A program made the translations under genes and the position numbers. A DNA stretch of 64,000 nucleotides, taken from Octopus vulgaris. Its lineage: Eukaryota. The DNA is taken from positions 84,196,001 through 84,260,000 of the forward strand of contig OX597823.1 in the NCBI GenBank assembly GCA_951406725.2, read 5' to 3'. The notes under the pieces were generated by a model, which worked only from the letters and a program-made list of their open reading frames with translations, searched no databases and was not told where the DNA came from. This document shows positions 1 through 58,699 of this stretch, piece by piece (positions within the stretch are counted from its first letter, which is position 1; every line of letters starts with the position of its first letter).

Positions 1-2084
1 TGTCATTCCCGATATTATTCCAGTTATTGTTATTCTAGATCTTATAACCATTATTGTTTTTGTTGGCATTATTCTTGCTGCTGTTATTCCTTTTGTTATT
101 CTTGACGTTATTCATGTTGTTATTCTTACTATTCTGTTTTTGCTGTTATTCGTGTTGTTGTTGTTGTTGATGTTCCTGATGTTATTCTTATTGTCATTAT
201 TTCTGTTGTTCTTCCTGTTGTTTCTATCCTTATTCCTGATGACGATGATGACAAATGTGAAGTAACGTAATTAAATGCCACAAAACAGTTGGTCCATCCC
301 TTTTCTGATTCTTGTGACGCACTTCACTGAACTTATACCTTTACATCACATCTACCAGATTCTATGAAGCCTGTGAAGTCAACCATGTTAACATCTGAAC
401 TCAGAAATTAAACACTCAAATTATAATGAGCCGTTAAGACTGGTGCTCCACCAGTTATGCCATCCCTGCCTCCACACTTTGTGTGCTAAGATTATGGCTT
501 CAGATTTTGGCCCAAGGCTAGCAATTTTAGGGGTGAGAGTAAGGCATTTATATGGACCCTAAGGCACAACTGATACTTATTTTATTGACCTTGTTAGGAT
601 ACAAGGCTAAGTCAACCTTGGCATAATTTGAACTCAGAATGTAGAAAGAAAGAAAGAGAGAGCTTACTAAATGCTACTCTGCTCCCTCCCAATGCTTTAT
701 TTTGTACGTTAAGACAACACTTTCAAATTTTAGTGCAAAGCCAGCAATTTTAGGGGTTAATAAGTTGTTTACTTGATTCTTGTGCACAGTTGGTACTTAT
801 TTTATCGACCTTGAAAGGATTAAAGGAAAAGTCGACCTTGGCAGAATTTGACTCAGAACATAGAGCTGGGAGAAATGTCACTAAATGTTTTGAGCTGATG
901 GGCGAACGACTCTGCTGGTTCACTGCTGTGAGTGTGTTAAAATATTGAATTTTAGCATAAATGTACACAAGGCCATGAATATGAGATTTTGGGAATGGCT
1001 GATTCAATCAATTGGTACTTTATTTCATCAACCCTAGAAAGATAAAGAGCAAACCTGACTTGGACTGGATTTGAACTCAGAATGTAAAGAGCAACTGCGC
1101 GCTCGTGAGAGAGAGAGAGAAGGAGAGATGTTACTAAATGCCTGGCAGCATTTAGTAATGTTCACCTCTCTGTCACTTTTGTATGATAAAATAATGTAAG
1201 ACAAGTCTCTGATAAGACCATTCCACCACCTTAATTCCAAGAATAAAGATAACTATAATCTGTTAGTTGAAGTCTTCGTTTTATCAGCCGAGATCTTTGG
1301 GAGGCCACATAATTCTGTCGTCTTTCTGCAGGACAATAGCTATATTATAAAGAATTATGAATTAATAATGGTACAAGAAGTACTAATTAAGTTAGTTATT
1401 TCAAAACGGTAATTCTATGTTGTCTAAGTTGACAGTTTTGTTTAGCCTCAAGTTGGCTTTGATTCAAGCAGATTTATAATAATGAGACATTCCAGCCATG
1501 GCTATAGTGTTGGTTTTTTTTCTTTTTTCTGTTTTAATATTTTTGTTGGGGTTTTCAGTTTTATTCAGGACTACATTAGGTGCAGGGATGGCTGTGTGGT
1601 AAGACGCTTGCTTCCCAACTACATGGTTCTGGGTTCAGTCCCACTATGTGGCATCTTTGCCTCGTGTCTTCTACTATAGCCTCAGGCTAACCAAAGCCTC
1701 GTGAGTGGATTTGGTTGATGGAAACTGAAAGAAGCTCATCATGTGTGTGTGTGTGTGTGTGTGTGTGCCTGTGCCTTTCTGTCTGTGTTTGTGACCCCGT
1801 AACTTAGCAGTTTGACAAATAAGTACCTGGTTTCAAAAAGAAGTGGTGGTGGTGGTGGTGGTGGTGGGGTGGGCTCTAGTCATTCATCTAATAGTTTGAG
1901 GCGGTGCCCCAGCATGGTCACAGCCTGTTGACTGAAACAAGTAAAAGATAAAAGATATCCAGTCTCTCCTTCCTATTTCAAAACAATCAGGTGTGAGGGA
2001 TTTGGTTGCTCCCTTGTCGGCATGATATAGGAGCTGTTATTATTGTTGTTTAGCTTCATGTCAACCCTTACTGAGCATATGACA

Positions 2085-11595: not shown

Positions 11596-12270
11596 TCCTT
11601 TCTACTAAAGGCACAGGGTCTGGAATTTTGGGGGAGGGAAAGTAGTCGATTACATTGTCCCCTGTGTGTAACTGCTACTTACTTCATCGACCGCAAAAGG
11701 ATGAAAGGCAAAGTTAACCATGGTGGAATTTGGACTCAGAACATAAAGACAGACAAAATACTGCCAAGCATTTTACCTGGTATTCTAACAATTCTGCCAG
11801 CTCACCACATTATTATTATTATTATTATTAATAATAATAATAATAATCCTTTCTACTATAGGCACAAGGCCTGAAGCTTGGTGGGAGGTGGGGGCCAGTC
11901 AATTAGATTGACCTCAGTATGCAACTGGTACTTAATTTATTGACCCCGAAAAGCTGAAAGGCAAAGTTGACCTCGGTAGAATTTGAACTCAGAATGTAGA
12001 GACAGATGAAATACCGCTAAGCATTTCACCTGGTGTGCTAACGATTCTGCCAACTCAGTAATGTTGATGATGATGATAATCCTTTCTACGATAAACACAA
12101 GGCTTGACATTTTGGTTGGGGGAGAAGAAACGTTGATTACATTGATCCCATTGCTCAGCTGGTACTTAATTCATTGACCCTGAATTTTTTGAACTCGGAA
12201 TGTAGAGATTAATGAAATGCTGCTAAGCATTTTATCTGGTCTGTTAATGATTCTACCAGCTCAACGCATT
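11595..12270 (-). mobile_element. Three tandem SINE family B copies with alternative tail (GCCTTGTGCCTATAGTAGAAAGGATTATT) separated by (TAA)n. Related copies at 497-660, 720-930, 1010-1165, 12730-12940, 20297-20515
   Basis: Head and core match family B, but the 3' ~40 nt differ from the Tx1-type tail. Confidence 0.85.
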
Positions 12271-12277
12271 ATTAATA

Positions 12278-12720
12278 GGCACAGGAGTGGCTGTGTAATA
12301 AGTAGCTTGCTTACCAACCACATGGTTCTGAGTTCAGTCCCACTGCATGGCACCTTGAGCAAGTGTCTTCTACTCTAGCCTCGGGCCGACCAAAGACTTG
12401 TGAGTGGATTTGGTAGACAGAAACTGAAAGAAGCCTGTCGTATATGTATGTATGTATGTGTATATATATATATATATATACACATGTATGTGTGTGTATA
12501 TGTTTTTGGGTGTGTGTGTCCCAACATTGCTTGACAACCAATGCTGGTGTGTTTCCATCTCCGTAACTTAGCAGTTCGACAAAAGAGATTGTTAGAATAA
12601 GTATTGGCTTACAAAGAATAAGTCCTGGGGTTGATTTATTTGACTAAAGGTGGTGCTCCAGCTTGGCCGCAGTTAGAATGACTGAAACAAGTAAAAGAAT
12701 AAAAGAAGAATAAAAGAGTG
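12278..12720 (+). mobile_element. SINE family A, full length
   Basis: Collinear with 60603-61016. Confidence 0.9.
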
Positions 12721-13471
12721 ACGATAATGGTTTCAAAGATTGGTGCCAGGCCTGAAATATCAGGGGACAGGGTCAAGTCGATTACAATGATTCCAGTACT
12801 TGACTGATACTTACTTTATTGACTCCGGAAGGATGAAGGGCAAAGTCATCTTCGGTGGGATTTGAACTCAAAATGTAAGGAGAGACAAAATGCTGCTAAG
12901 CAGTTTGTGCAGCCTGCTAACGGTTCTGTCTGCTTGCCACTTTTTTAAAAATCAGGGCTATGGAGTCGAAACAAAAAATTTCAAACTCACTACCTCATGA
13001 TTGTGAGCCTGACTCTCTAACCACTGAGCCATGTGCCTTCATATATATGTGTCTGAATGTATGTGGCTGTCTTTGTGTCAGTGTTCATCTCTCACCACCA
13101 CTTGACAACCACTGATGGTTTGTTTACGTCCCTTAACAGTTCAGCAGAAAAAGACCAGTAGAATAACAGACCAAAACAACAAAAAATAAATAAAAAAAAA
13201 AGAAGCAGAAAATAAGTCCTAGGGTCAATTCGTTCAGTGAAATCTCTTCAAGGTAGTGCCCCAACATGGCCACTATTCAATGACTGAAACAAGTAAAAAG
13301 ATAAGAGAAATTAGAAATTTCCATTAAAGTTTCATGTTAATTAATGTTCCACACATCAGCTTAATAAGCACAAAATTATTTTATTAAATGCTTCGTTATT
13401 TTCGAAATTAATTGATGTAAAATCCGTGTATTTCAACCAAAATTTAGTAGCAAAAGGGTTGAAAGAAAATG

Positions 13472-19673: not shown

Positions 19674-22547
19674 CTGTGATGGTGCTGGTGCCATGTAAAA
19701 AGAACTCAATACACTCTGTAAAAGTGGTTGGTACTTCAAAGGGGACCCAAGCCAAAACAGGTGACTGGAGCCTGGTGCGGCCTTCTGACTTGCCAGCTCT
19801 TGTCAAACCATCCAACCTATGCCAGCATGGAAAACTTGTTAAATGAAGACAAAGATGTATTTAGACATGGTTATAGGTGCAAGCATGCTTGTGTGCTTTA
19901 GAAATTAGCTTCACTACCCTGAGGTTTTGGGGTTCAAGCCTACTAAGTGAAATACATGGAACCTTGGACAAGAGTCTTCTTCTGTAGCTTTGAGCCTTGC
20001 TATTGAATTTGATTGAGAAGAGACATGTGTGTGTGTGTGTGTGCATGTATGTTTGTGTGTATTGTCTTGACATCATATGGAGGTGTGTCACCTTCACACA
20101 AGCAATTTCATTAACTTACAATCTTCTATGAAAACATATCTGGCCACATGCAAATCTTACCAAGCTTGGAAACAGGCTGTAGAAAATCTGCCTCAATTAA
20201 TTCCATCTGACCCATATAAGCAAGGAAAAAGCAGGCATTAAAAATGATAATGATGATGGTTAATTATCGTCGTCGTCATGATTATTTAATGTCCCTTAAG
20301 GCAGAAAGCTGGCAGAATTGTTAGCTCAATGGACACAATGCTTAGCGGTATTTTGTCTGCTGCTACATTCTAAGTTCAAATTTCACCGAGGTCGACTTTG
20401 CCTTTCATCCTTTCAGGGCTGATAAATTTAGTAGCAGTGGAACACTGGGATCAATGTAATCGGCTGGTCCCCTCCCCCAAAATTTCAAGCTTTGTGTCTG
20501 CAGCAGAAAGGATTGTTTAATGTCCCTTTTTTCCATACTAACATGGGTCTGATGGCTTGACAAGTAGAGATAAACCTAAGGGCTCTGCTAGATTCTATGT
20601 CTGCTTTGGTATGGTTTTTTTCCTGCTGGATGCCCTTCCTAATGTCAACCACTTAACAGAGTGTACTGGGTGCTTTTTAATCAGCTCTTTCTCTTTTTCT
20701 AATTATGATTTATAAGAAATCTGATATTTTTCAGAAAAAAAATTTGAAGTAGATCTATTCTGTGCCCCGCTCTTTTTCTTTTAGTATACCAATTTGAGTT
20801 TAATGAGCTGTATTGTATAACTTTTAATTAATTACTGTATTGCTAAGATTATATCTAATTTGGAAGAGAGTATTTGTTCTGCTATCACGTCATCATTATT
20901 GAAATAACTGTGCTGTTTTAAAAGTGAAAATAATCCATTATACTATTGGTGCAGGCATGACTGTGTGCTAAACAATTTGCTTCCCAACCATAAGGTTCGG
21001 TGTTCAGGCTCACTGCGTGGCACCTTGGGCAAGTGTCTTCTACTACAGCCTCAGGCTGACCAAAACCTTGTGAGTGGGTTTGGTAGATGGAAACTGAAAG
21101 AAGCCTGGATGTATATATGTGGGTGTGTGTGTCTTTGTGTCTGTGATTTTTATTCACCCCATCACTGCTTGGCAATCGGTATTGGTGTGTTTACGTCCCT
21201 GTAACTTAGCAGTTCAGCACTAGTGACCGATAGAGTAAGTCCTTGGTTTTAAAAAATAAAAATAAATCATGAGGTTGATTTGTTCGACTAAAACTCAAAG
21301 CAGTGCTGTAGCATGGCTGCAGTCAAATGACTAAAACATGTAAAAGAATTTATACATATATATATATATATATATATATCGCATTGTTTAACGTCCGTTT
21401 TCCATGCTGGCATGGGTTGGACGGTTCGACCGGGGTCTGGGAAGCCAGGAGGCTGCACCAGGCTCCAGTCTGATCTGGTTGTGTTTCTACAGCTGGATGC
21501 CCTTCCTAACGCTAACCACTCTGTGGGTGTGGTGGGTGCTTTTTACGTGCCAGGTGAGGCTCGCAACGGTCACAATCGGTTGGTGCTTTTTACGTGCCTT
21601 GGTGGGATTTGAACTCGCGAAGGGAAAGTAATGATGGCGGCGGTTGTGGTGTTTGTGGTGGTAGTTTAATTATTATACTAAAGCCACCTACTTAATACGG
21701 TAATTATAATGCCTACTTTAAAAAATGTTAATTACATTGATAAATAAATCAACAAATTGATTAATTAATTAATTCTTTACGAAAACAAAATATTTATAAT
21801 GGCTCAACTCCAGGGGGTTTCACATAAAAATATAAAACGCGCCGAAAATCTGTTGAAGAATTTTGTTTAATTAACCAAAAGAAAAAGACACCTAAGAGTT
21901 CTCTCCCTTGCACTTGTTATCTTCAACTTACGACTTGAACATAGCGGCAACTGCTCCGTTTTAAGGGCTGGATTCTTTAGACATTCGTCAAGCTAGAAAA
22001 TTTATGGACAGGGATTTTTTTTTAGTTTTGTCAAAGGCATCAGTTTATCTTGAAAATCTTTCGTGAAAAAAAGAACACTTTATTTTTTGTCTTCTCAACA
22101 TTCGATCGCGCGCGCGCGCGCACACACACACGCACACACGCACACACACGCACACACGCACACACGCACACACACACACACACACACTTCAATGGTTCAT
22201 AACGTGCACGTTTTTTTTTTTTTTTTTGAAAATTGTCCCAGAAACAAATCTACCTTCATTTTATAAGGCTTTTAATTTTGTGTGGATGAGGCAACTGAAT
22301 TACACATCATGTATCTTATTTAGAGTAGTAGCAGATGGTGGGTCAAGAATGGACTTTTCAAAATTGTGGTTTGTCTTTAAAGCGTGTGTGCACCTTCATT
22401 ATCGTTACAATACCCACTCTTCACCCTCCTCTCGTTTTTCTGTAAATTTCAACTATAAATATATATATATATATTTCAATCAAAGATGTTATATAGAAGT
22501 ATGTGTTGGTGCCTGATGTGTGAGTTAGTGAGGTAATAATACTTTTA

Positions 22548-26895: not shown

Positions 26896-27072
26896 AAAGA
26901 AGACTCCAGAAGTCAATCCTCATCAAACTGGCCTATAGTAATTAAAAAAAGTACAAAACAAAAAAAAACCCATTTAATCCTTTTGATACAAACCTGTCTG
27001 GTATCACCCTTGGTTTATGGTACCATCTTCTTATTTTAAAGAGATCAGTTCATCAAACGGTCTTAGAAATAC

Positions 27073-27304
27073 GTATTTCTTTACTACCCACAAGGGGCTA
27101 AGCACAGAGGGGATAAACAAGGACAGATAAATGGATTAAGTCAATTACATCGACCCCAGTGCGTAACTGGTACTTAATTTATCGACCCTGAAAGGATGAA
27201 AAGCAAAGTCTACGTAGGCGGAATTTGAACTCAGAACATAACGGCAGACGAAATACCTCTAAGCATTTTGCCCGGCGTGCTAATGTTTCTGCCAGCTCAC
27301 CACC
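27073..27304 (-). mobile_element. SINE family B with Tx1-type tail
   Basis: Same structure. 9-bp direct repeat TAGAAATAC at 27064-27072 and 27305-27313. Confidence 0.88.
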
Positions 27305-27707
27305 TAGAAATACCAGCCAGGCTGAGATCACCGTCGGGTCTACGATAGAAGCTACCTGTTTTAACCTATTGACCTCCACCTGTACCACTGGTGGTTCATT
27401 GCAGTCTACACACACCCACCATATGCACCACTGGTGGTACATTTTCATAATTTGAGAAAACATTTTGATGATGATGATTTTATTCTGTATCTTCAAAGGT
27501 ATTTAAATATAATGCATATTAAATATTAAAGTTTAACCCTTTGGTATTTAAACTGACCATATCTGGCCCAAATATTCTACCTGTTTTCTGTTCAAACTGG
27601 CCAGACTTGGCCTTTCACATCAGCCCTGTAACATCTTTCTAAAAATTAAGTTACCTCATCAAAATCTCAAACTTACAAGATAATGCAAGATTAATGCAAA
27701 CATATAT

Positions 27708-49185: not shown

Positions 49186-49940
49186 TTAAACAATTGTAAC
49201 TATTTTATTTATCGACATAGTAACGTGGTTTTTGGAACACAATTGAAGAAAAGATTCTTAATCAATTCTCTTGCATAACTTTTGTCTCAAAGTGACTCTT
49301 ATTACAGGTAAATACATGTAAACCACAAGCTGTCTTTTTTTTTTCTCAGTTTCTTTACTCTCTGTGTAATGGTTTGTTTCCATAGTGATCACTTCAAACA
49401 AGCTTACATTTACATGATTTCTCCTGAAATCTGTAAAAAAAGACTGAAACAAGTAAAAGAGAGAGAGTATGTGACATCTCAGACACGAAATTTAACAAAT
49501 CCAGTGCTGGCTATAATTTCTATAGAAAATCTGAAGAGATAAACTTAACAAGTGATTTAATAGCACTGCTAACACAGTAGTACACAGCATTGGCTTATAA
49601 AAGCGTTTAATATACTTTAATAGTATATTATGGGTGCATAATGAAATATCATGGGCCTACAGGTCTTTAATATTTATCTTTTACCTGTTTCAGTCATTAG
49701 ACTGTGGCCATGCTGGGGTGCCGGACTTGATGACTTTTTAATCAAACAAATCATCCCTAATACTTATTTCTTTAAACCTTGTACTTATTTTATTGAATCT
49801 TTTTTTGTTGAACCACTAAGTTACAGGGATGTAAACACACCAACACCTGTTTTCAAGTGGTGGTGGTGGTGGGAAACAAACACAGAAGCAAATACATACG
49901 CACACTTAGATAATTATACAACAGGTTTCTTGTAGTTTCC

Positions 49941-50171
49941 TATTTCTTTACTGCCCACAAGGGACTACACACAGAGGAGACAAAGAAGGACAGACAAATG
50001 GATTAAGTCGATTATATTGACCCCAGTGTGTAACTGGTACTTATTTAATCGACCCCGAAACGATGAAAGGCAAAGTCGACCTCGGCGGAATTTGAACTCA
50101 GAACATAGCAGCAGACGAAATACTGCTAAGCATTTCGCCTGGCGTGCTAACGTTTCTGCCAGCTTGTCACC
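49941..50171 (-). mobile_element. SINE family B with Tx1-type tail, nested in a family A SINE
   Basis: tRNA-like head (AGCTGGCAGAAACGTTAGCACGCC...GAGTTCAAATTCC), core GTCGACTTTGCCTTTCATC..GGGGTCGAT..AAGTACCAG. 14-bp TSD TTCTTGTAGTTTCC at 49927-49940 and 50172-50185. Confidence 0.9.
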
Positions 50172-51530
50172 TTCTTGTAGTTTCCATCTACCAAATCCAT
50201 TCACAAGGCTTTAGTTGGCCCAAAGCTATAATAAAAACAAAGTACCACACAGTGGGACTGAACCCGGAACCATGTGGTTGGGAAGCAAGCTTGTTACCAC
50301 ACAACTACACCTGCACCTATATATGTATATACATTTCTTCCTACTCTTAATTTGTGACTGTGAATAATAATAATAATGATAATAATAATAATAATAATAA
50401 AAAAGAGAATAGTGTGGAAATAAGTGACTCACTAGTAATTAAAATCGTTATGGGAAAACATCATTTTGTTTTGGCTGTCTTGTTTTGTAGATTTTGGTTT
50501 ATTTATCATTTAACAGAAAATAATTAAATAAATTTACAAAAATGTTTTTAAATTTTAAAAAGAATTTGCAAAACAAAAAGAAAAGAAAATTCTTCCCTCA
50601 TTGGGTGTTGATTCCTTTTGAGACACTAATGAGATATTGGTGATGATGGAGAGACATTTCCCTGCATCCTGATATCAAGACTCTACTGTAAACACTCGGT
50701 ATTGTTATCTTAAACTCTTTACTCTCTTCTAATTGTTACCATTCTTACCATTCTGTGTTTATTCAGACTGTTTACTGATAAGACATGAGAATCAGCAAAT
50801 ATGATAGCATAACACTTTGGCAAGAATAGAACATGTCGTTTTAATTAAGTCACTTATTGACATTATGGTTAAGATTTCTTTTTTTTTTTTTTTTTTTTTT
50901 AGCATTAACTAAGTCCCCGTTGTGTTTGTAGTCTTCCCTTTGTCTCTACTGAAACTCTTTGTAACAGCAAAAGATAGTTAGATTGATTCACCCCACCAAC
51001 CCATCCCTTCCACCATCTATGTTTACGATCCCCTCCTTTTCTCTCTCTCTCTCTCTCCTTGCACTAGATCCATAAGCAGATATTTCCATTCTGTACTAAT
51101 TATGCTTTTAGTGTTTCTTTCTGCAGAAAATACAGTTAAGCTTGCAATAAAATACACAAGCTTCGATAAGATATTCTTTTCTGAGCCAATGAAGGAGGCT
51201 CTTACATGGCCTCCTAACCTGGTAGAAATAGCTGAGAAAATTTCCTTCACAATACACTTATGCATAGGGATCCTCAACCATTTTCTACCTGCAGAGCAGA
51301 TCCCTTTGATTCCTCTTTTATTCTACTGGACCCCCATAGACATTTGATGTTTTAAAAAACAAATTCCATTATAGGCACAGACGTGGCTGTGTGGTTAGAA
51401 GCTTGCTTCCCAACCTAATGGTTCTGGGTTCGGTCCCACTTAGTGGGACCTTTGGGCAAGTCTCTTCTACTATAGCCTCAGACCAAACCAAAGCTTTGTG
51501 AGTGGATTTGCTTCACAGAAACTGAAAGAA

Positions 51531-51792
51531 ACTATAAAATTGACAGAAACTATAAAGGTGGTGGGTAAGCTGGTAGAAACATTTGCATGCCGGGCGAAAT
51601 GCTTAGTAGTATTTCGCCTGCCGTTATGTTCTGAGTTCAAATTTCACTGAGGTCGACTTTGCCTTTCATCCTTTCAGGGTCGATAAATTAAGTACCAGTT
51701 ATTCACTGGGGTCAATGTAATCGACTTAATTCCTTTGTCTGTCCTTGTTTGTCCCCTCTAAGTTTTATTCCCCTGTGAGCAATAAGGAAATA
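51531..51792 (+). mobile_element. SINE family B with Tx1-type tail, nested in a family A SINE
   Basis: Same structure. 14-bp TSD AGAAACTGAAAGAA at 51517-51530 and 51793-51806. Extra nucleotides at the 5' junction. Confidence 0.88.
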
Positions 51793-53123
51793 AGAAACTG
51801 AAAGAAGCCTTTCTGGATAGATGTGTGTGTGTGTCTTTGTGTGGTTGGTAAGTAAGCTACTTACCACACAGCTACTCCAGTGCCTATATTTAGGAAATTT
51901 TCAAATGTAAACAAACAACTATGAATGACACACAGTTCATGTGATTAGAAATTTAACGTTTAAATTTTAGCTAGTATTGAACGTTAAAATGCTACTAAAG
52001 CATCAAATTTATTTGAAAAAAAATATGTATTATATTTATATAGGTTTATGTGAAGAAGGTAGAAAGACAGATGTAGCTTATTGTGAGTGGTGTAATATAC
52101 AAAAATTATATTGGGAAATGTAAATGAAGATTGATGAATAACATTGGTGTTATTTTGGAATTAAATTAGTTAGGATATAATTTCCGGTGTTTGAAGCAAA
52201 AATATTTTGTATTTAAAATATAAGGTGCAGAAAAACTATATAATACTCACTTACAAAATGTTGCTAAATGCTAGAGAAATTGAAAACGGTTACAAGATAA
52301 ATTCCTTAGGATTGTTTCTAACAATCCCTTACACTAATATTGTTTCCTCAAATTCTGTGTATATATATATATATATATATATACTAGCATTAAAGACCTG
52401 GCGTTGCCGGGTCATAGTGCTAGTGCATGTATATACGTGTATATATATGTGTACATATTACATGTACATCTATATATATACATCTACACATAAAATACAA
52501 AATACAAAGTTATATCTTGATATCACTAGTGATAACAATACTCAAAATATATAACAGACTGCAATTGTTAGCCCGTCTCTTGTAATTTCGATCAATTGTA
52601 TCTTGTCCTCCCTCTTGTATAGAAGTGTGGCTACAATGCAGCCTACCTCTACTTCTGGGGGAAAGGGGGGGGGCATTTAAAATTTTTTTCCGGACGTCCT
52701 ACGTCCCAGATATAAAGGTAAGAATAAAATATTTCCACTTTGCAAGTTCGAGTCGAGTACTCCCTTGCACGCTCCATTGACTCGAACCTTGCTTCTATTG
52801 TGGCAAATTTACCGCCTCTGATTAGATACCTTTCATAGTCCCACCAAGACACTTTTCGAAGGTGCTTTCCTCCATATTGTTTTATTATTACCCACAAGGG
52901 GCGAACACAGATGGGACAATACATTCTGATGATGGGGTCAGACAAACGAATGGGTTTTTACAATAAATCGGGTTTAAAAATTTTCATGAATAACAATAAA
53001 TGGACAAAAATCGAGTGATAGGACAGACCGGAAGACATTACGGGTGGAGTGGGTGCGGGTTTAGCTCGGACCCCACGAGCCCCGCCTCCCCACTGATACT
53101 TTTGGTTGCACTTGGTATTACAT

Positions 53124-56100
53124 TTATGTTGTAACTTTCATTCGCAACTTCCGTGCTACATCCTTCCATCGTTCTTCATACGCTCTCCTAGTCAGGCATA
53201 TTCTCTCCAGCCCTATCTTCCTTTTCAGGTGAAAGATGAAATAATTCATCAAACCAGGGCCGGAGATGAACTTGCCTGACTGTAAACCTTTCATTCTCGT
53301 CTTCCATATCACCTCTTTCGCGATTGCTACTACAACGAGAAAACGAAACTTACCTTCATTCACGAGGAAATCCGGTGGGTCAATTTTTGTAATCGACTCA
53401 GTCGACAGCTGTACTCTTCGTGTACCTGACAACAGGTGTTCGGCATAAACCCACACCTCAGACACGTCCGGACAATGAACAATCGCGTGCGGGACGGTTT
53501 CCCTATCCCGCCCGCATCTTGGACATATCGGACTGTCTTGGCCACCGTGCCTTGCGAGTTTATCCCGAACAGGTAGAGCTCCTCTGTAGCATTGCCATGC
53601 CAGAGACTTCTGGAAGTTGTCCAGTGTCCTTGGCTCGAACGTACGTCGGAACAGACTGGCCAGCTGATTATCGTCGAGACCTAGGGTTTCCCCCAAGGTA
53701 TCTTCACATTCCGCCTCTACCAACCCTCTATAGAAGAAAGTGGTGGAACCCCCACCGCAGGCGTTGCCCGAGCGACGGAATAGCAGGAGAGCCTTGCGAC
53801 ACTCCGTGTACCAAGTACCAAGTTTCGATCTACGATTCAGCCAGGTTTCCCATCCACCGAAACTAGTGAACTTGGGAAACATCAGTTTTGCTAGCGAAGA
53901 CCACACCCGTTCACCATCCAGGTAGAGCCACAGATGTCTTAACCTCAGCGCATGTCTGCGCATCATCAGCCAAGGCATCCCTAGCCCACCCTTTAACGGT
54001 TGTTGACAGCAAGTAGAGCGTTTCACAAGTGGTTTCCCGCCCTTCCACAAGAAGTAGAAGAGCTGTCTTTCCAACTTGATCAACCACGAATCAGGGCAAG
54101 GAACGACGGAAAGGCGGTAGGTGATAACCGATGCGATAAACACATTGGCCACCTCCGCCCTCCCTTTCAGGGATAGCCACCGCCAAGACCAGGTCTTGGC
54201 TACTGCAGCCACCTTGCTCGTTACCTCGCCCCAATTCTTCTCTATTTGGAGGTCTGGACCGAACCAGACCCCTAGCAGTTTAATCGGACCCTCCGTCCAA
54301 CGTCCCACGACGCTGTCAGGAGGCATCGACTTGCCTCTCCAGGTGCCGAGTTGCAAGCCGACTGACTTTTCGCGATTAACTTTTGCTCCTGTCACCGTCT
54401 CGTACACCTCTATGGCCTTGCCTACTTTACATAGGTGGTCCATTTCGGTTACGATGATGGTGATGTCATCCGCGTACGCTGACACTGATTTTCCATTACC
54501 TGGCTGTCTCGGGATGCCGCTCAGTTTTCGCAGTAATGGCTCAAGAGCCATCACGTACAAAAGCGGGGAGAGCGGACACCCTTGACGAACCGAGCGTTTG
54601 ATTTTGAACGGCTTCGACAAGAAGCCGTTCACCCGAACTACCGAGTCGATGTTATCATAAATTTCGATAATCCACCTGAGGAATCCAAGGCTCAGCCCGA
54701 ACTGTGCCAGGGCAGATACCAGGTAACGATGGTCGACCCTATCAAAAGCTTTAGATTGGTCTAAATGGACCAGTGCCCCACCCTTGCCAGAATCACTATT
54801 AAACCCCTCTATAGTGTACCGCATTAGATGGAGATTATCCTGAATGGATCTGCCCGGAACGGCACATGTCTGTGCCCCTCCGATCAGACCATCCGCGACA
54901 CGCGCCAATCTTTTCGATAACACTTTGGCCAAAATCTTCAACTCTGTGTTTAGCAGAGTGATGGGCCTGAAATTATCAATGCACTCCCCCTTGCTCGGGT
55001 CCTTTCTGACGAGAGTCACTACTCCCCGGCGCACAGATCTGGGTATAAGCCCGTTCTGCTGCCAGTTCGCGTAGACCTCCGCCAGTAGGTGCCCGAACAA
55101 GTCTGGCATACTCTTATATAACTCATAGGGTAGACCATCCAAACCCGGCGCCTTGCCCGCGCCGCAGTCCGCCATTGCCTCAACCACCTCCTCAGGCGTG
55201 ATTGGCCCTTCACAGCCCTCCGCATCTCGCCCCGATAAGCGCGGCAGACCGTCGAGTAGGTCCGTAAAGGCCCTCCTCCTATCCAGTCCGCCGCACTCAC
55301 CGAAAAGCTGAGCGAAGTGCTCCTGAAAGGCCTCACACATCTCCTCGGGTTCGTTTATCAACTCACCTTGTTGGTTCGTCAAAGATCGAATCGTGGCATC
55401 GTTACCATGCTGAGCTTCCACCACTCGGGCCCATCTCACGGCGTTGATTCCTTCACATCCCATATGACGGATTCTAGCCCTGACAATGCAGCCCATGTGT
55501 TTGGCCTCGAGGTGCTGGTTTAACACCAGTCTCTTGGCCGCCACCTGAGCCGCAGAGCCAGTTTTCATGGCTTCCTCTAATTCCTTAACTAGAGTAGTTT
55601 CCCTTCTAGCCTCTCTAGCCACTACTCCTATGCTATATCTAATAGACTCAAACTTGATGGCTCGTTTGAGGGCGTACCACCATTTGTTATTAATGATGGT
55701 ACCAGATAGTGCCCTCTGAATTATATTCCTAATCCGGTCTTTGTACTCCTTAATCGCCAAAAGGGACGTATTAAGTTTCCAGTAACCGGATCCTCTATTT
55801 TTAACCTTATCTATGTCAAGCTTACAAGTGACCATTTTATGATCACTGTAGCTGATCGGGTAAAACTGTGGACACTTAGCTATTTTACTGTCTACTTTTC
55901 TAATTAGTATTCTATCTAGATACGACCTGGAAGATCCGTCGCTGTTTGACCATGTCCACAATGGAGCGTTCGGAAATTCCAGCCTATAAGGATCTGCTAG
56001 CTCAAAGCGGCTTAGCAGTTCCATGAAGCCACTGTTGCCTTTTCTATCTGGACACGAGCCAACATAATCTACATCCGCTTTGCAAATTGTGTTAAAGTCT

Positions 56101-56519
56101 CCTAGCACCACTAATGAATGCGAAGTACCAAGAAAGTTTTCTAGTTCACGAAAATAATCACTTTGCCCTGTATGGTTGGGTGCGTAAATTGCAACCAGTC
56201 TGATAACTTTACCATTACTGAACGTCAAATCCATGACGACCAGCCTACCTTCTGGATCTGCAAAAATTAACTTTTTCTCAGAAACCCGGTTTCTTTTTAA
56301 TAGGACCAACACCCCACTCCCGCCTGTAGGACTGCCAGGAGAGAAAAAACTCTCGTAGCCGTCAAACAGCGGGAGTAGACCTCTTGGCCCCTCTAGCCGG
56401 GTTTCTGTAGCAACAATAACATCTAAATTACGCGACCTGATATCATGCAGGAAGCGACCTTGCTTCCAGCCTGCTCCCAGGCCGCGCACATTTAAACAAC
56501 CAACATAAATGTAATCCAT
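53124..56519 (-). CDS. Tx1-type ORF2 polyprotein (AP endonuclease, reverse transcriptase, C-terminal CCHC zinc finger), 1131 aa, uninterrupted
   Basis: APE motifs LNVRGL, ATET, IYAPN, GDFN, YLDRI, SDH. Tx1/L1-typical GYWKLNTSLL. RT motifs KAPGLDGL, FRPITLLNTELKIL, LDQSKAFDRVDH, RQGCPLSPLLY, YADD. Finger CPRC-x8-H-x4-C. Confidence 0.95.
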   Translation of the reverse strand: MDYIYVGCLNVRGLGAGWKQGRFLHDIRSRNLDVIVATETRLEGPRGLLPLFDGYESFFSPGSPTGGSGVLVLLKRNRVSEKKLIFADPEGRLVVMDLTFSNGKVIRLVAIYAPNHTGQSDYFRELENFLGTSHSLVVLGDFNTICKADVDYVGSCPDRKGNSGFMELLSRFELADPYRLEFPNAPLWTWSNSDGSSRSYLDRILIRKVDSKIAKCPQFYPISYSDHKMVTCKLDIDKVKNRGSGYWKLNTSLLAIKEYKDRIRNIIQRALSGTIINNKWWYALKRAIKFESIRYSIGVVAREARRETTLVKELEEAMKTGSAAQVAAKRLVLNQHLEAKHMGCIVRARIRHMGCEGINAVRWARVVEAQHGNDATIRSLTNQQGELINEPEEMCEAFQEHFAQLFGECGGLDRRRAFTDLLDGLPRLSGRDAEGCEGPITPEEVVEAMADCGAGKAPGLDGLPYELYKSMPDLFGHLLAEVYANWQQNGLIPRSVRRGVVTLVRKDPSKGECIDNFRPITLLNTELKILAKVLSKRLARVADGLIGGAQTCAVPGRSIQDNLHLMRYTIEGFNSDSGKGGALVHLDQSKAFDRVDHRYLVSALAQFGLSLGFLRWIIEIYDNIDSVVRVNGFLSKPFKIKRSVRQGCPLSPLLYVMALEPLLRKLSGIPRQPGNGKSVSAYADDITIIVTEMDHLCKVGKAIEVYETVTGAKVNREKSVGLQLGTWRGKSMPPDSVVGRWTEGPIKLLGVWFGPDLQIEKNWGEVTSKVAAVAKTWSWRWLSLKGRAEVANVFIASVITYRLSVVPCPDSWLIKLERQLFYFLWKGGKPLVKRSTCCQQPLKGGLGMPWLMMRRHALRLRHLWLYLDGERVWSSLAKLMFPKFTSFGGWETWLNRRSKLGTWYTECRKALLLFRRSGNACGGGSTTFFYRGLVEAECEDTLGETLGLDDNQLASLFRRTFEPRTLDNFQKSLAWQCYRGALPVRDKLARHGGQDSPICPRCGRDRETVPHAIVHCPDVSEVWVYAEHLLSGTRRVQLSTESITKIDPPDFLVNEGKFRFLVVVAIAKEVIWKTRMKGLQSGKFISGPGLMNYFIFHLKRKIGLERICLTRRAYEERWKDVARKLRMKVTT

Positions 56520-56528
56520 TACTTACCT

Positions 56529-57906
56529 TTATATCAGTGGTTCGGTTTTTTCTTCTTCTTCCTTCTCTTTTTCTGGGCCTCGTGGGGGAGTCTGACGTAG
56601 GCCCTCGAATATATGTGGAGATGTTACATCCAACCTAAGTGGGCCCACGTCATGGAAGAAATCTGACTTTATCCGCCCGTAATCCTTCCGGTCTATTTTG
56701 TAAATTGCAAAGTCATTTTTTTTCTCTACTCTCTTCACATTGGCCATGGCTGCCAACACGTTTCCGAGTCTGCTATTTGATGCTTTTACGGCCATATATG
56801 AGTTTATTGACTCTTTTTTCTTTTTAAAATTACTCTGGGAGGGGTGGTTTCCGTTTTTCTTTTTTTTTTTCCGATAATTTTTGCCCACCCCTCCTCATTT
56901 ATCTTTTCCTCGCTCTTTTTTTCCTCCGCCGCTGGTTCTGCTGTTACCATCACCTCCACACCTTCAGTCTTCCCTTCTGGGCCGTCTGACGCTGCTTCTG
57001 GTGACACATTGTCTTCTTTTCCTTTTGGCTTAGGTGCTTCCTGCGGTTTGGGTTGGGGCTGGCATTCCGCCCTTACATGCCCCTTCTTACCGCAGCCGAA
57101 GCACCTCGGCTTTCTGCCCTCTACGAAGACTGTGACTCTTTCATCTTCGCTTATCCTAAGAGTCTCTGGGATCTCTTCCAGGGTTTGTACTTCTGCTTGT
57201 ATGGCTATTATTATCTTTTGCCCTTTCCAGAATTCTTCTTCTTCTACGGTGGCCTGGAGGATGTTTATTTTTTCCTCCAGGCCTACCATAACTGCTGCCA
57301 CTAGGACTTCGGCATCCGCTTCTGGCGGGATGTTGTTCATAGTGATTTTGGAAGTTCTCTTGCCTTTATACAGGGGTAGGAGAACAATATCCTCCGTTTT
57401 TATGGGTTCCATGGATAGCTTCTTCGCTACCTCCTCTGACGTGAATCTCACCTCCACTGTGCCGTATTTCTTCCCTCGATTGATATACGTAATTTTGTCC
57501 ATTATTGGTTTTAAGCAGTTTTCAATCTTTTTCTCCTCTATTTTTTGGATTGCTCTGTTTGTTATACTGAATGTCTTATAGATTATTCTCCTATTCGAAA
57601 TATCCTCCTGTATTTTGGCGTTTGAAGCCACGGTTACTTCTGTGCCCTCTTTTGACACACAGTCTGCATGTTTTCCCAGGTTGTCCACGTTAATTTTTTT
57701 AATTTTCTTCCCAGCCACTTCAGCGAATTTTTTTGCTGGAGTTGATGCTGGTACTGGTTTTACCATTTTCTTGGGCGACGCCGCCTCTTTTTCTTCGGCG
57801 ACAGCGCCTCTTTTTTTCTTGGCGACAACGCCTCTTTTTTTCTTGGCGACAACGCCGGGTATTCCTCCTCGCTCGTCACGGGTGAATAAGTGATGGGGGA
57901 CTCCAT
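56529..57906 (-). CDS. Tx1-type ORF1 (gag-like nucleic-acid-binding protein), split by two single-base frameshifts in A runs
   Basis: Zinc knuckle CFGCGKKGHVRAEC in ORF 56804..57928. The ATG at 57906 (MESPITYSP...) and the overlapping ORF 56529..56888 each join by a -1 shift, giving ~459 aa that ends 9 nt before the ORF2 ATG. Confidence 0.8.
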
Positions 57907-58699
57907 TTTGAACAAATGGCTTTAACAAGCCTTTGGTAATCTAAATTGATTGTAGTTTTCCCCCACTGAGGGGGGAACACCAACGCGAAGTCTTCGCGCG
58001 AAGGTTGACTTCGTCCGTTAGACAACAATGGACAAAAAAAGGTAGCCCAACAGTATATAATAACAGAGATAAGTAGTATGAGAGCAAAAATATATATCAA
58101 CTTACTAATAACGCAATAAATTGATTTCCGCCATGTGTTCAAATCTTCTTTTTTCTCTACATTTTATACTTTATAGACAATAGTCTTTTCTTTAATTTAA
58201 TTTTCTATTATTCATCTGGACTATTCCATTTCTGCATGCTAATTTTATTTTTAATTTATTCCCATTCATGTGAAACCACTTATTCAAGTTCAAATCATTG
58301 ATGCAATTTTATACCAATTGCTATTTTTACTTTTGTTATGTTACGATTATATTATACTTTAGTTTGATTTTAATTATTACTTACTACATATAATTCAATT
58401 GTTATTATTATTTTTATTGTTAAAGTGAAAGTATCTGACATAAAATAGAGAAACGTTTTTGTTTCACTTTTAACACATAATACTGAAATATTGGAGAAGA
58501 TATGATATTACTATGGACTCGCTCTAGGCAAGAAGTTGAACATTTTTTGCCCATGAAACTACATGGACCCTAAGTAAGGCTTGTGTAAAATTTGAATGGA
58601 ATTGGTTGTGTAGTTCTCAAGTTTTAGGGAAACACACAGACAGACAGACAGACACAGACACACATTCTCAGTTTTATATATATAAAGATATATATATAT

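Follow-up and report, generated by a model that had tools for sequence, protein, structure and literature searches.

Whether one short interspersed element (SINE) can serve another as a dedicated landing site is the question raised by a 64,000-nt stretch of the Octopus vulgaris genome (GenBank assembly GCA_951406725.2, contig OX597823.1, positions 84,196,001 to 84,260,000; hereafter the window, at its full length), in which two copies of a SINE family termed B lie inside two different copies of a SINE family termed A. A preliminary description of the sequence had read this arrangement as site-specific insertion, with a Tx1-type enzyme delivering B into A as a safe harbour. The insertion position in A (the A site, GGAAAC in the consensus and AGAAAC in a variant) is a real hotspot, and its use across the genome lies far above chance; that B is site-specific for A, or that A is its safe harbour, is nevertheless rejected, and B is scattered genome-wide with short target preferences. 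The hotspot is best, and in our judgement probably, explained by pairing of RNA read through beyond the B tail with DNA nicked by a loosely specific L1/Tx1-type enzyme, and the safe-harbour idea fits a neighbouring long interspersed element (LINE) with its Helitron-like host rather than B in A.

Nested Insertions in the Window

Both B-in-A insertions and their 14-nt target site duplications (TSDs) were recovered by similarity alignment to the A and B copies of the window, as had been described, each in sense orientation relative to its host and each with host-specific variants in its TSD (coordinates in Table 1). The two A hosts are 71% alike and the two B inserts 87%, which shows that neither nested copy arose from its neighbour by local duplication and bears out the earlier claim of separate insertions. 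The final AA of the first TSD is ambiguous, as it could equally be the usual 5' AA of B. The third B copy lies at an unrelated site, as was also noted before, where a 10-nt TSD starting GGTATTT (GGTATTTCTA/CGTATTTCTA, at 27305-27314 and 27064-27073) was observed. The presence of two of three copies at the A site in one window represents a fluctuation, since a rate of 0.5-1% predicts ~3-13 such cases among ~43,800 windows of the 2.8-Gb genome when three B copies per window are assumed. ARAGORN and Rfam returned nothing relevant at the nested-insertion locus and no tRNA in the head of SINE B, where A/B-box-like motifs were seen by eye only. Both A and B presumably resemble the octopus SINEs OK, OR1 and OR2, and no family name is given to either here.

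The A Site Is a Single-Nucleotide Hotspot

Among the A-site matches listed, the junction fell at the identical base in 98/100, and insertions are not evenly spread along A; these and the other samples of listed matches were drawn from the first contigs only. Inspection of 70 A-site loci, comprising 30 of the 89 GG junctions and 40 AG junctions, exposed a TSD in A context in 54, with lengths of ~8-21 nt, varying 5' truncations and host variants present in both TSD copies, while the other loci gave three false TSD calls and 13 cases without TSD. The nested hosts are less alike than free A copies (median likeness 0.655 versus 0.791) and the nested B inserts as diverse as free B (0.836 in both), which argues that the nested copies are not one amplified composite. 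Independent insertions, a fixed nick and a TSD were accordingly all found for SINE B in A.

The consensus, which had been proposed as the target, turned out to be the disfavoured form. The AGAAAC variant occupies 82/98 filled A sites among the matches listed versus 14/100 empty sites (14/50 empty sites in a 600-kb sample), the filled-site count being a recount where the statistical test had used 83:15, and the GGAAAC form is disfavoured ~30-fold in odds. The 5' TSD copy also carries the A in 29/29 called AG loci. The fill rate reaches ~0.6-1.3% for AG-variant A sites, for which 32,584 were counted and ~65,000 extrapolated from the sample, versus ~0.05% for GG sites and ~0.05% for other AGAAAC hexamers; AGAAAC sites of a third repeat seem similarly hot (4 of 100 listed, ~47,000 sites), with a wide error. 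Moreover, the B tail was of the C-type, defined below, at 84/98 A sites among the matches listed. One A-site locus (L031:1541-1699) carries a TSD-flanked 5.8S rRNA copy (Rfam RF00002, 89 bits) joined to a B tail of which only the final ~30 nt are present, and is read as a template-switch chimera.

SINE B Rarely Uses the A Site

A genome-wide count gave 128,967 matches to the B tail pattern, and the A site follows within 30 nt in 504 of them (0.4%). As about half of the B tails are internal to multimers by hand counts, this corresponds to ~0.8% of terminal B ends. The site was seen in 0/29 other best matches to the third B copy and in 1/30 unfiltered B loci, which agree with a low share even though exact anchors undercount insertions. 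Other positions in A are also hit, namely the head (206), the middle (22) and the antisense strand (153, mostly in the (TA)n tract), and all four tested A windows together account for 885/128,967 tails. The published criterion for target specificity is that more than 20% of flanks lie within one target repeat (PMC4494074), and SINE B in SINE A falls far below it.

SINE B Multimers, Tail Types and Target Classes

Arrays of SINE B are built from units 1-231, 47-231 and 15-231, where unit 47 begins GGTATT and unit 15 begins AGAAAC, and their tails are of two types, T-type (GGGT..) and C-type (GGGC..). In 72 multimers, some loci of which were chosen for AGAAAC and none for tail type, a T-type tail was followed by unit 47 in 100/117 cases and never by unit 15, while a C-type tail was followed by unit 15 in 13, by unit 47 in 9 and by the array end in 38. 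T tails do precede ~12 of ~60 unit-15 junctions in a separate list, versus 78% T genome-wide. Both types co-occur in single multimer insertions, usually with T internal and C terminal, and entire multimers are enclosed by a single TSD, from which it follows that read-through RNAs existed and were copied. A satellite-like array of ~14 head-to-tail 184-nt B units (47-231) was also observed (G000:C7:9618538-9621388), as were three loci (L015, L020 and L268) in which B sits antisense within a second B-type copy, each time at GGTACTT. A further SINE in the window (537-1082, 11644-12940 and 20306-20465) contains B positions 1-166 with another tail and is also found in composites, where it follows B at position 15.

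The sequence that follows a tail type inside multimers recurs in the targets of that type. Ends with a T tail lie mostly at GG(TAT) and ends with a C tail at AG(AA), TATA or AATA; by hand counts, terminal ends start with GG in 24/39 T versus 10/82 C (p = 4e-8) and with AG in 0/39 T versus 13/82 C, in lists that leave out the canonical A site and are not used for site frequency. Within one host, the head of A, T-type copies account for 11/13 insertions at GG/GA starts versus 12/83 at AG starts (p = 9e-7), and the terminal units of multimers are split in the same manner (GG start in 11/15 T versus 2/16 C). In addition, AGAAAC targets outside A and B continue with AT in 7/23 cases versus 8% background (p = 0.002, post hoc), which fits G-T wobble with the RNA AGAAACGU.

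Proposed Read-Through Pairing at Priming and Its Alternatives

These patterns point to priming by read-through RNA as the probable origin of the hotspot. The ORF2 protein of a LINE would bind the LINE-derived B tail and nick DNA with weak preference, and reverse transcription would begin directly behind the tail, at places where the freed strand can base-pair with the read-through RNA; in the case of TATA targets the pairing partner would be the ATA of the tail itself. Aged A copies in which CGGAAAC has decayed to CAGAAAC would offer the AGAAAC match ~33,000-65,000 times, which is proposed to give rise to the hundreds of independent sense insertions at one nick. Pairing of RNA and target at priming has been published for other LINEs, namely L1, SART1, R1Bm and RTE-type tails (PMC6007223, PMC7265360, PMC3649969).

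Several results weigh against read-through pairing. A strict test for RNA-templated junction bases gave 6 versus 4 (p = 0.75), and a looser test, in which some of the TSD calls are probably false, gave 18 versus 4 (p = 0.004), a count that falls to 11 versus 4 after pruning by eye. No G-to-A overwrite was found in 29 AG loci, the hexamer match alone does not account for the 10-25-fold excess at AG-variant A sites, and the multimer junctions could result from enzyme preference instead of causing target choice. No partner LINE of B was identified, the window LINE being ~99-100% conserved versus B copies that are ~84-93% alike, and the supporting samples share the first-contig scope given above. 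Separately, template slippage was considered as the source of the AG junctions and rejected, as it would leave three A's between T and G where two are seen, and folds of the 3' ends revealed no single structure in common.

The strongest competitor, which is possible although we hold it to be rather unlikely, is a preference set by enzymes only, such that two related endonucleases, or two periods, with targets GGTAT versus AGAAAC/TATA moved the T- and C-type B copies, and multimers arose as B inserted into B wherever its internal sequence matched. It is consistent with the equivocal outcome of the junction tests, with a weak common target profile (no G at -1 in 34, T at +3 in 29/34) and with the several LINE families that carry this tail, each with a different downstream sequence, and according to PMC4494074 target choice depends mainly on the endonuclease. 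It is opposed by the joint occurrence of T and C tails within the same multimer insertions and by the type split that persists in their terminal units. Moreover, site-specific sister families of the window LINE, one of which ends in TAAAGAAATA as B does, do not hand their target to B.

An improbable addition to read-through pairing is homing, in which a B already lodged in an AG-variant A acts as source and its RNA reads into A, so that it can form extensive pairing with A copies elsewhere. Homing would account for the 10-25-fold excess over other AGAAAC sites, and in 6/13 loci without a TSD call B is accompanied by A's right half while no left half is detectable, but three such composites that were inspected have no flanking TSD. 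The comparable heat of AGAAAC sites in the third repeat, within its wide error, also speaks against homing, as do the continuation of AGAAAC with TG in only 1/23 non-A targets and the lack of any subclade among the nested B inserts.

That a sequence-specific Tx1 endonuclease puts B into A as a safe harbour is refuted as a family-level property and retains very little probability: the one-nick hotspot with independent sense insertions and the SINEU/Tx1-Mar precedent (PMC4494074) agree with it, but the low share of B tails at the site and in the four A windows, the ~30-fold disfavoured consensus and the position of the A site behind 0/189 LINE tails listed do not. Least credible of all is a single A-B-A composite spread by duplication, for although 4/40 AG loci (L112-L115) are segmental duplicates, the loci differ in TSD length, in 5' truncation and in the variants of their hosts, and 0 host pairs among 1,431 exceed 95%.

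The Neighbouring LINE and Its Helitron-like Host

The features of the nested loci and of the adjacent LINE are compiled in Table 1. An inverted A head (51842-51884, minus strand) adjoins the second A host and cuts away its tail, and a general repeat search of the window was dominated by microsatellites.

Table 1. Coordinates of the SINE, LINE and host features in the window.
Feature	Position	Strand	Remarks
Host SINE A copy 1	49673..50317	-	tRNA-like head, microsatellite, ~240-nt tail; head 50317-50186, B insert 50171-49941, tail down to ~49673; blastn against intact window A copies
Insertion 1 TSD, 5' copy GGAAACTACAAGAA	50172..50185	-
SINE B copy 1	49941..50171	-	231 nt; C-type tail
Insertion 1 TSD, 3' copy	49927..49940	-
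Host SINE A copy 2	51374..51841	+	split by B copy 2; head 51374-51516
Insertion 2 TSD, 5' copy AGAAACTGAAAGAA	51517..51530	+	favoured AG variant
Extra 30 nt at 5' junction of B copy 2	51531..51560	+	partial repeat of target; by sequence
SINE B copy 2	~51561..51792	+	C-type tail
Insertion 2 TSD, 3' copy	51793..51806	+
SINE B copy 3	27074..27304	-	T-type tail; GGTATTT-class target
L1/Tx1-type LINE, young, full-length	52878..58124	-	5,247 nt; 3' end homologous to B tail
LINE ORF2	53124..56522	-	1,132-aa open frame; APE endonuclease, RT, zf-RVT (Pfam)
LINE ORF1 frame	56804..57940	-	378 aa between stop codons; no match in Pfam
LINE 12-nt TSD, 5' copy ACATGGCGGAAA	58125..58136	-
LINE 12-nt TSD, 3' copy ATATGGAGGAAA	52866..52877	-
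Non-autonomous Helitron-like host	52384..58688	-	~1.05 kb, split by the LINE; window and 12 empty copies

The predicted architecture of the LINE would place it with Tx1-type elements, as it comprises two open reading frames (ORFs), with an APE endonuclease, a reverse transcriptase and a C-terminal zinc motif in ORF2; the endonuclease is nearest to that of L1 among solved structures, and a homologue search gave 96 homologues, nearly all unnamed, and no clade names. The 3' end of the LINE lies 1.1 kb away from the nested B, whose final 36 nt match it at 86%, and the tail homology spans the last ~36-60 nt, so that B has the LINE-homologous 3' terminus by which LINE-tailed SINEs are recognised. 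Of the earlier suggestion of delivery by a Tx1 enzyme, the tail common to B and this APE-type L1/Tx1-like LINE is borne out. Only 2/101,678 B tails lie ahead of the LINE target ACAYGG, however, which indicates either that the partner of B is a different, older relative or that something besides the protein contributes to the target.

The LINE itself is, with high confidence, site-specific for one 12-nt site, ACATGGAGGAAA, in the Helitron-like repeat, where sister families stack in tandem. Many genome copies are 99-100% identical, and among the best 29 copies 21 (one being the window copy) run into the same host behind ACATGGAGGAAA, three are head-to-tail tandems and five lie elsewhere. Among the 189 of 205 LINE tail matches that were listed, 85 lie directly at the host site, in a list that mixes several families with other downstream sequences and combines separately listed non-host and host-site matches; by both counts the LINE exceeds the 20% one-target level. 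In 20 loci compared whole the 12-nt TSD recurs and the LINE copies are 98.9-99.8% identical versus 86-96% (mean 91.5%) for their hosts, which, together with 353 occurrences of the exact empty target, shows that the insertions are independent of host amplification. Four of these 20 copies abut the left half of the host, while the neighbour of 14 is the 3' end of a sister LINE from either of two families whose tails are related; one of these families was found in 24 copies.

Helitrons are characterised by a 5' TC, a 3' CTAG preceded directly by a hairpin and insertion between A and T. The window copy of the host has all of these ends, and most of the 12 empty copies have the hairpin-CTAG/T end and several the A/TC start, so that the host appears to be a non-autonomous Helitron-like element as judged by its termini. 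Tandem arrays with a ~5.29-kb period were also seen (G000:C27:32952343-32984125 and C58:24600-45763), in which every unit consists of the LINE tail and the same next sequence, probably another LINE family in tandem, and further recurrent sequences behind the LINE tail (ATTCCAGTC.., GATACTCAAA..) suggest more families with their own targets.

A broader and quite speculative extension of read-through pairing, to which we give only a small chance, is that the read-through RNA may be an inherited guide across the LINE lineage, with one loose cutter and the target set by the sequence behind the source tail. The SINE subtypes would, just as tentatively, be directed to GGTATT or AGAAAC, and the LINE with its stacked sisters to ACATGGAGGAAA in the Helitron. 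If this were true, site specificity would be gained and switched through nesting with the protein unchanged.

Significance and Comparison with Known Systems

While the claim of one SINE using another as safe harbour does not hold, the system provides a natural high-count test of RNA-DNA pairing versus endonuclease as the target setter of non-LTR elements, since a single SINE with two kinds of tail offers tens of thousands of events and a control within the same host. In addition, an apparently very young, open-frame APE-type LINE at one 12-nt Helitron-like site is a ready substrate for specificity assays. Nesting of a SINE via Tx1-type machinery and single-base nested hotspots are both already known (PMC4494074, PMC2836564), whereas the Helitron-like host class appears new for Tx1-type elements, as a literature search over partly available texts found no report of a Helitron-targeting Tx1-type LINE or of the targets of these SINEs. 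The octopus tRNA-derived SINEs OK, OR1 and OR2 are credited to Ohshima and Okada 1994 in PMC4758252 and PMC4824008. In an annotation of octopus repeats from 2026, 13 L1-Tx1 families are given as recently active (PMC13282606), and the words target and nested are absent from the available portion of its text, although its supplements and Repbase may bear on novelty.

Tx1 elements are known in piggyBac, Mariner and Harbinger hosts (PMC4494074). Similar to Tx1L in Tx1D, Tx1-Mar in Mariner-N4 and Tx1-9_AMi in Harbinger, the window LINE inserts at a single position of a non-autonomous DNA transposon, where its TSD is fixed and copies stack up (PMC4494074), and it differs from them in a host with Helitron termini, the word Helitron being absent from PMC4494074. 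In crocodilians, 13-90% of SINEU copies are flanked by Mariner-N4, a target held in common with Tx1-Mar (Kojima 2015, PMC4494074). SINE B resembles the SINEU/Tx1-Mar system in being a SINE with Tx1-type machinery nested in another repeat, in tandem stacking at the target and in the independence of insertions as judged from truncated copies (PMC4494074), while it is unlike SINEU in that <1% of B ends lie at the A site and in that B and the LINE differ in target.

The A site is closer to the human nested hotspots, such as Alu into Alu (Levy et al. 2010, PMC2836564), being a single-position, orientation-biased hotspot in a high-copy host with no family-level specificity; unlike these, use of the B hotspot varies with the sequence variant of the host and with the tail subtype of the inserting SINE. 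As in L1 snap-velcro, SART1, R1Bm and AfroSINE/RTE tails, the nicked strand would pair with RNA bases that lie at the 3' end or behind it, with a resulting bias in target use (PMC3649969, PMC7265360, PMC6007223), but in contrast to those systems the pairing bases of B appear to come from the next multimer unit, which would give rise to two or three target classes per family.

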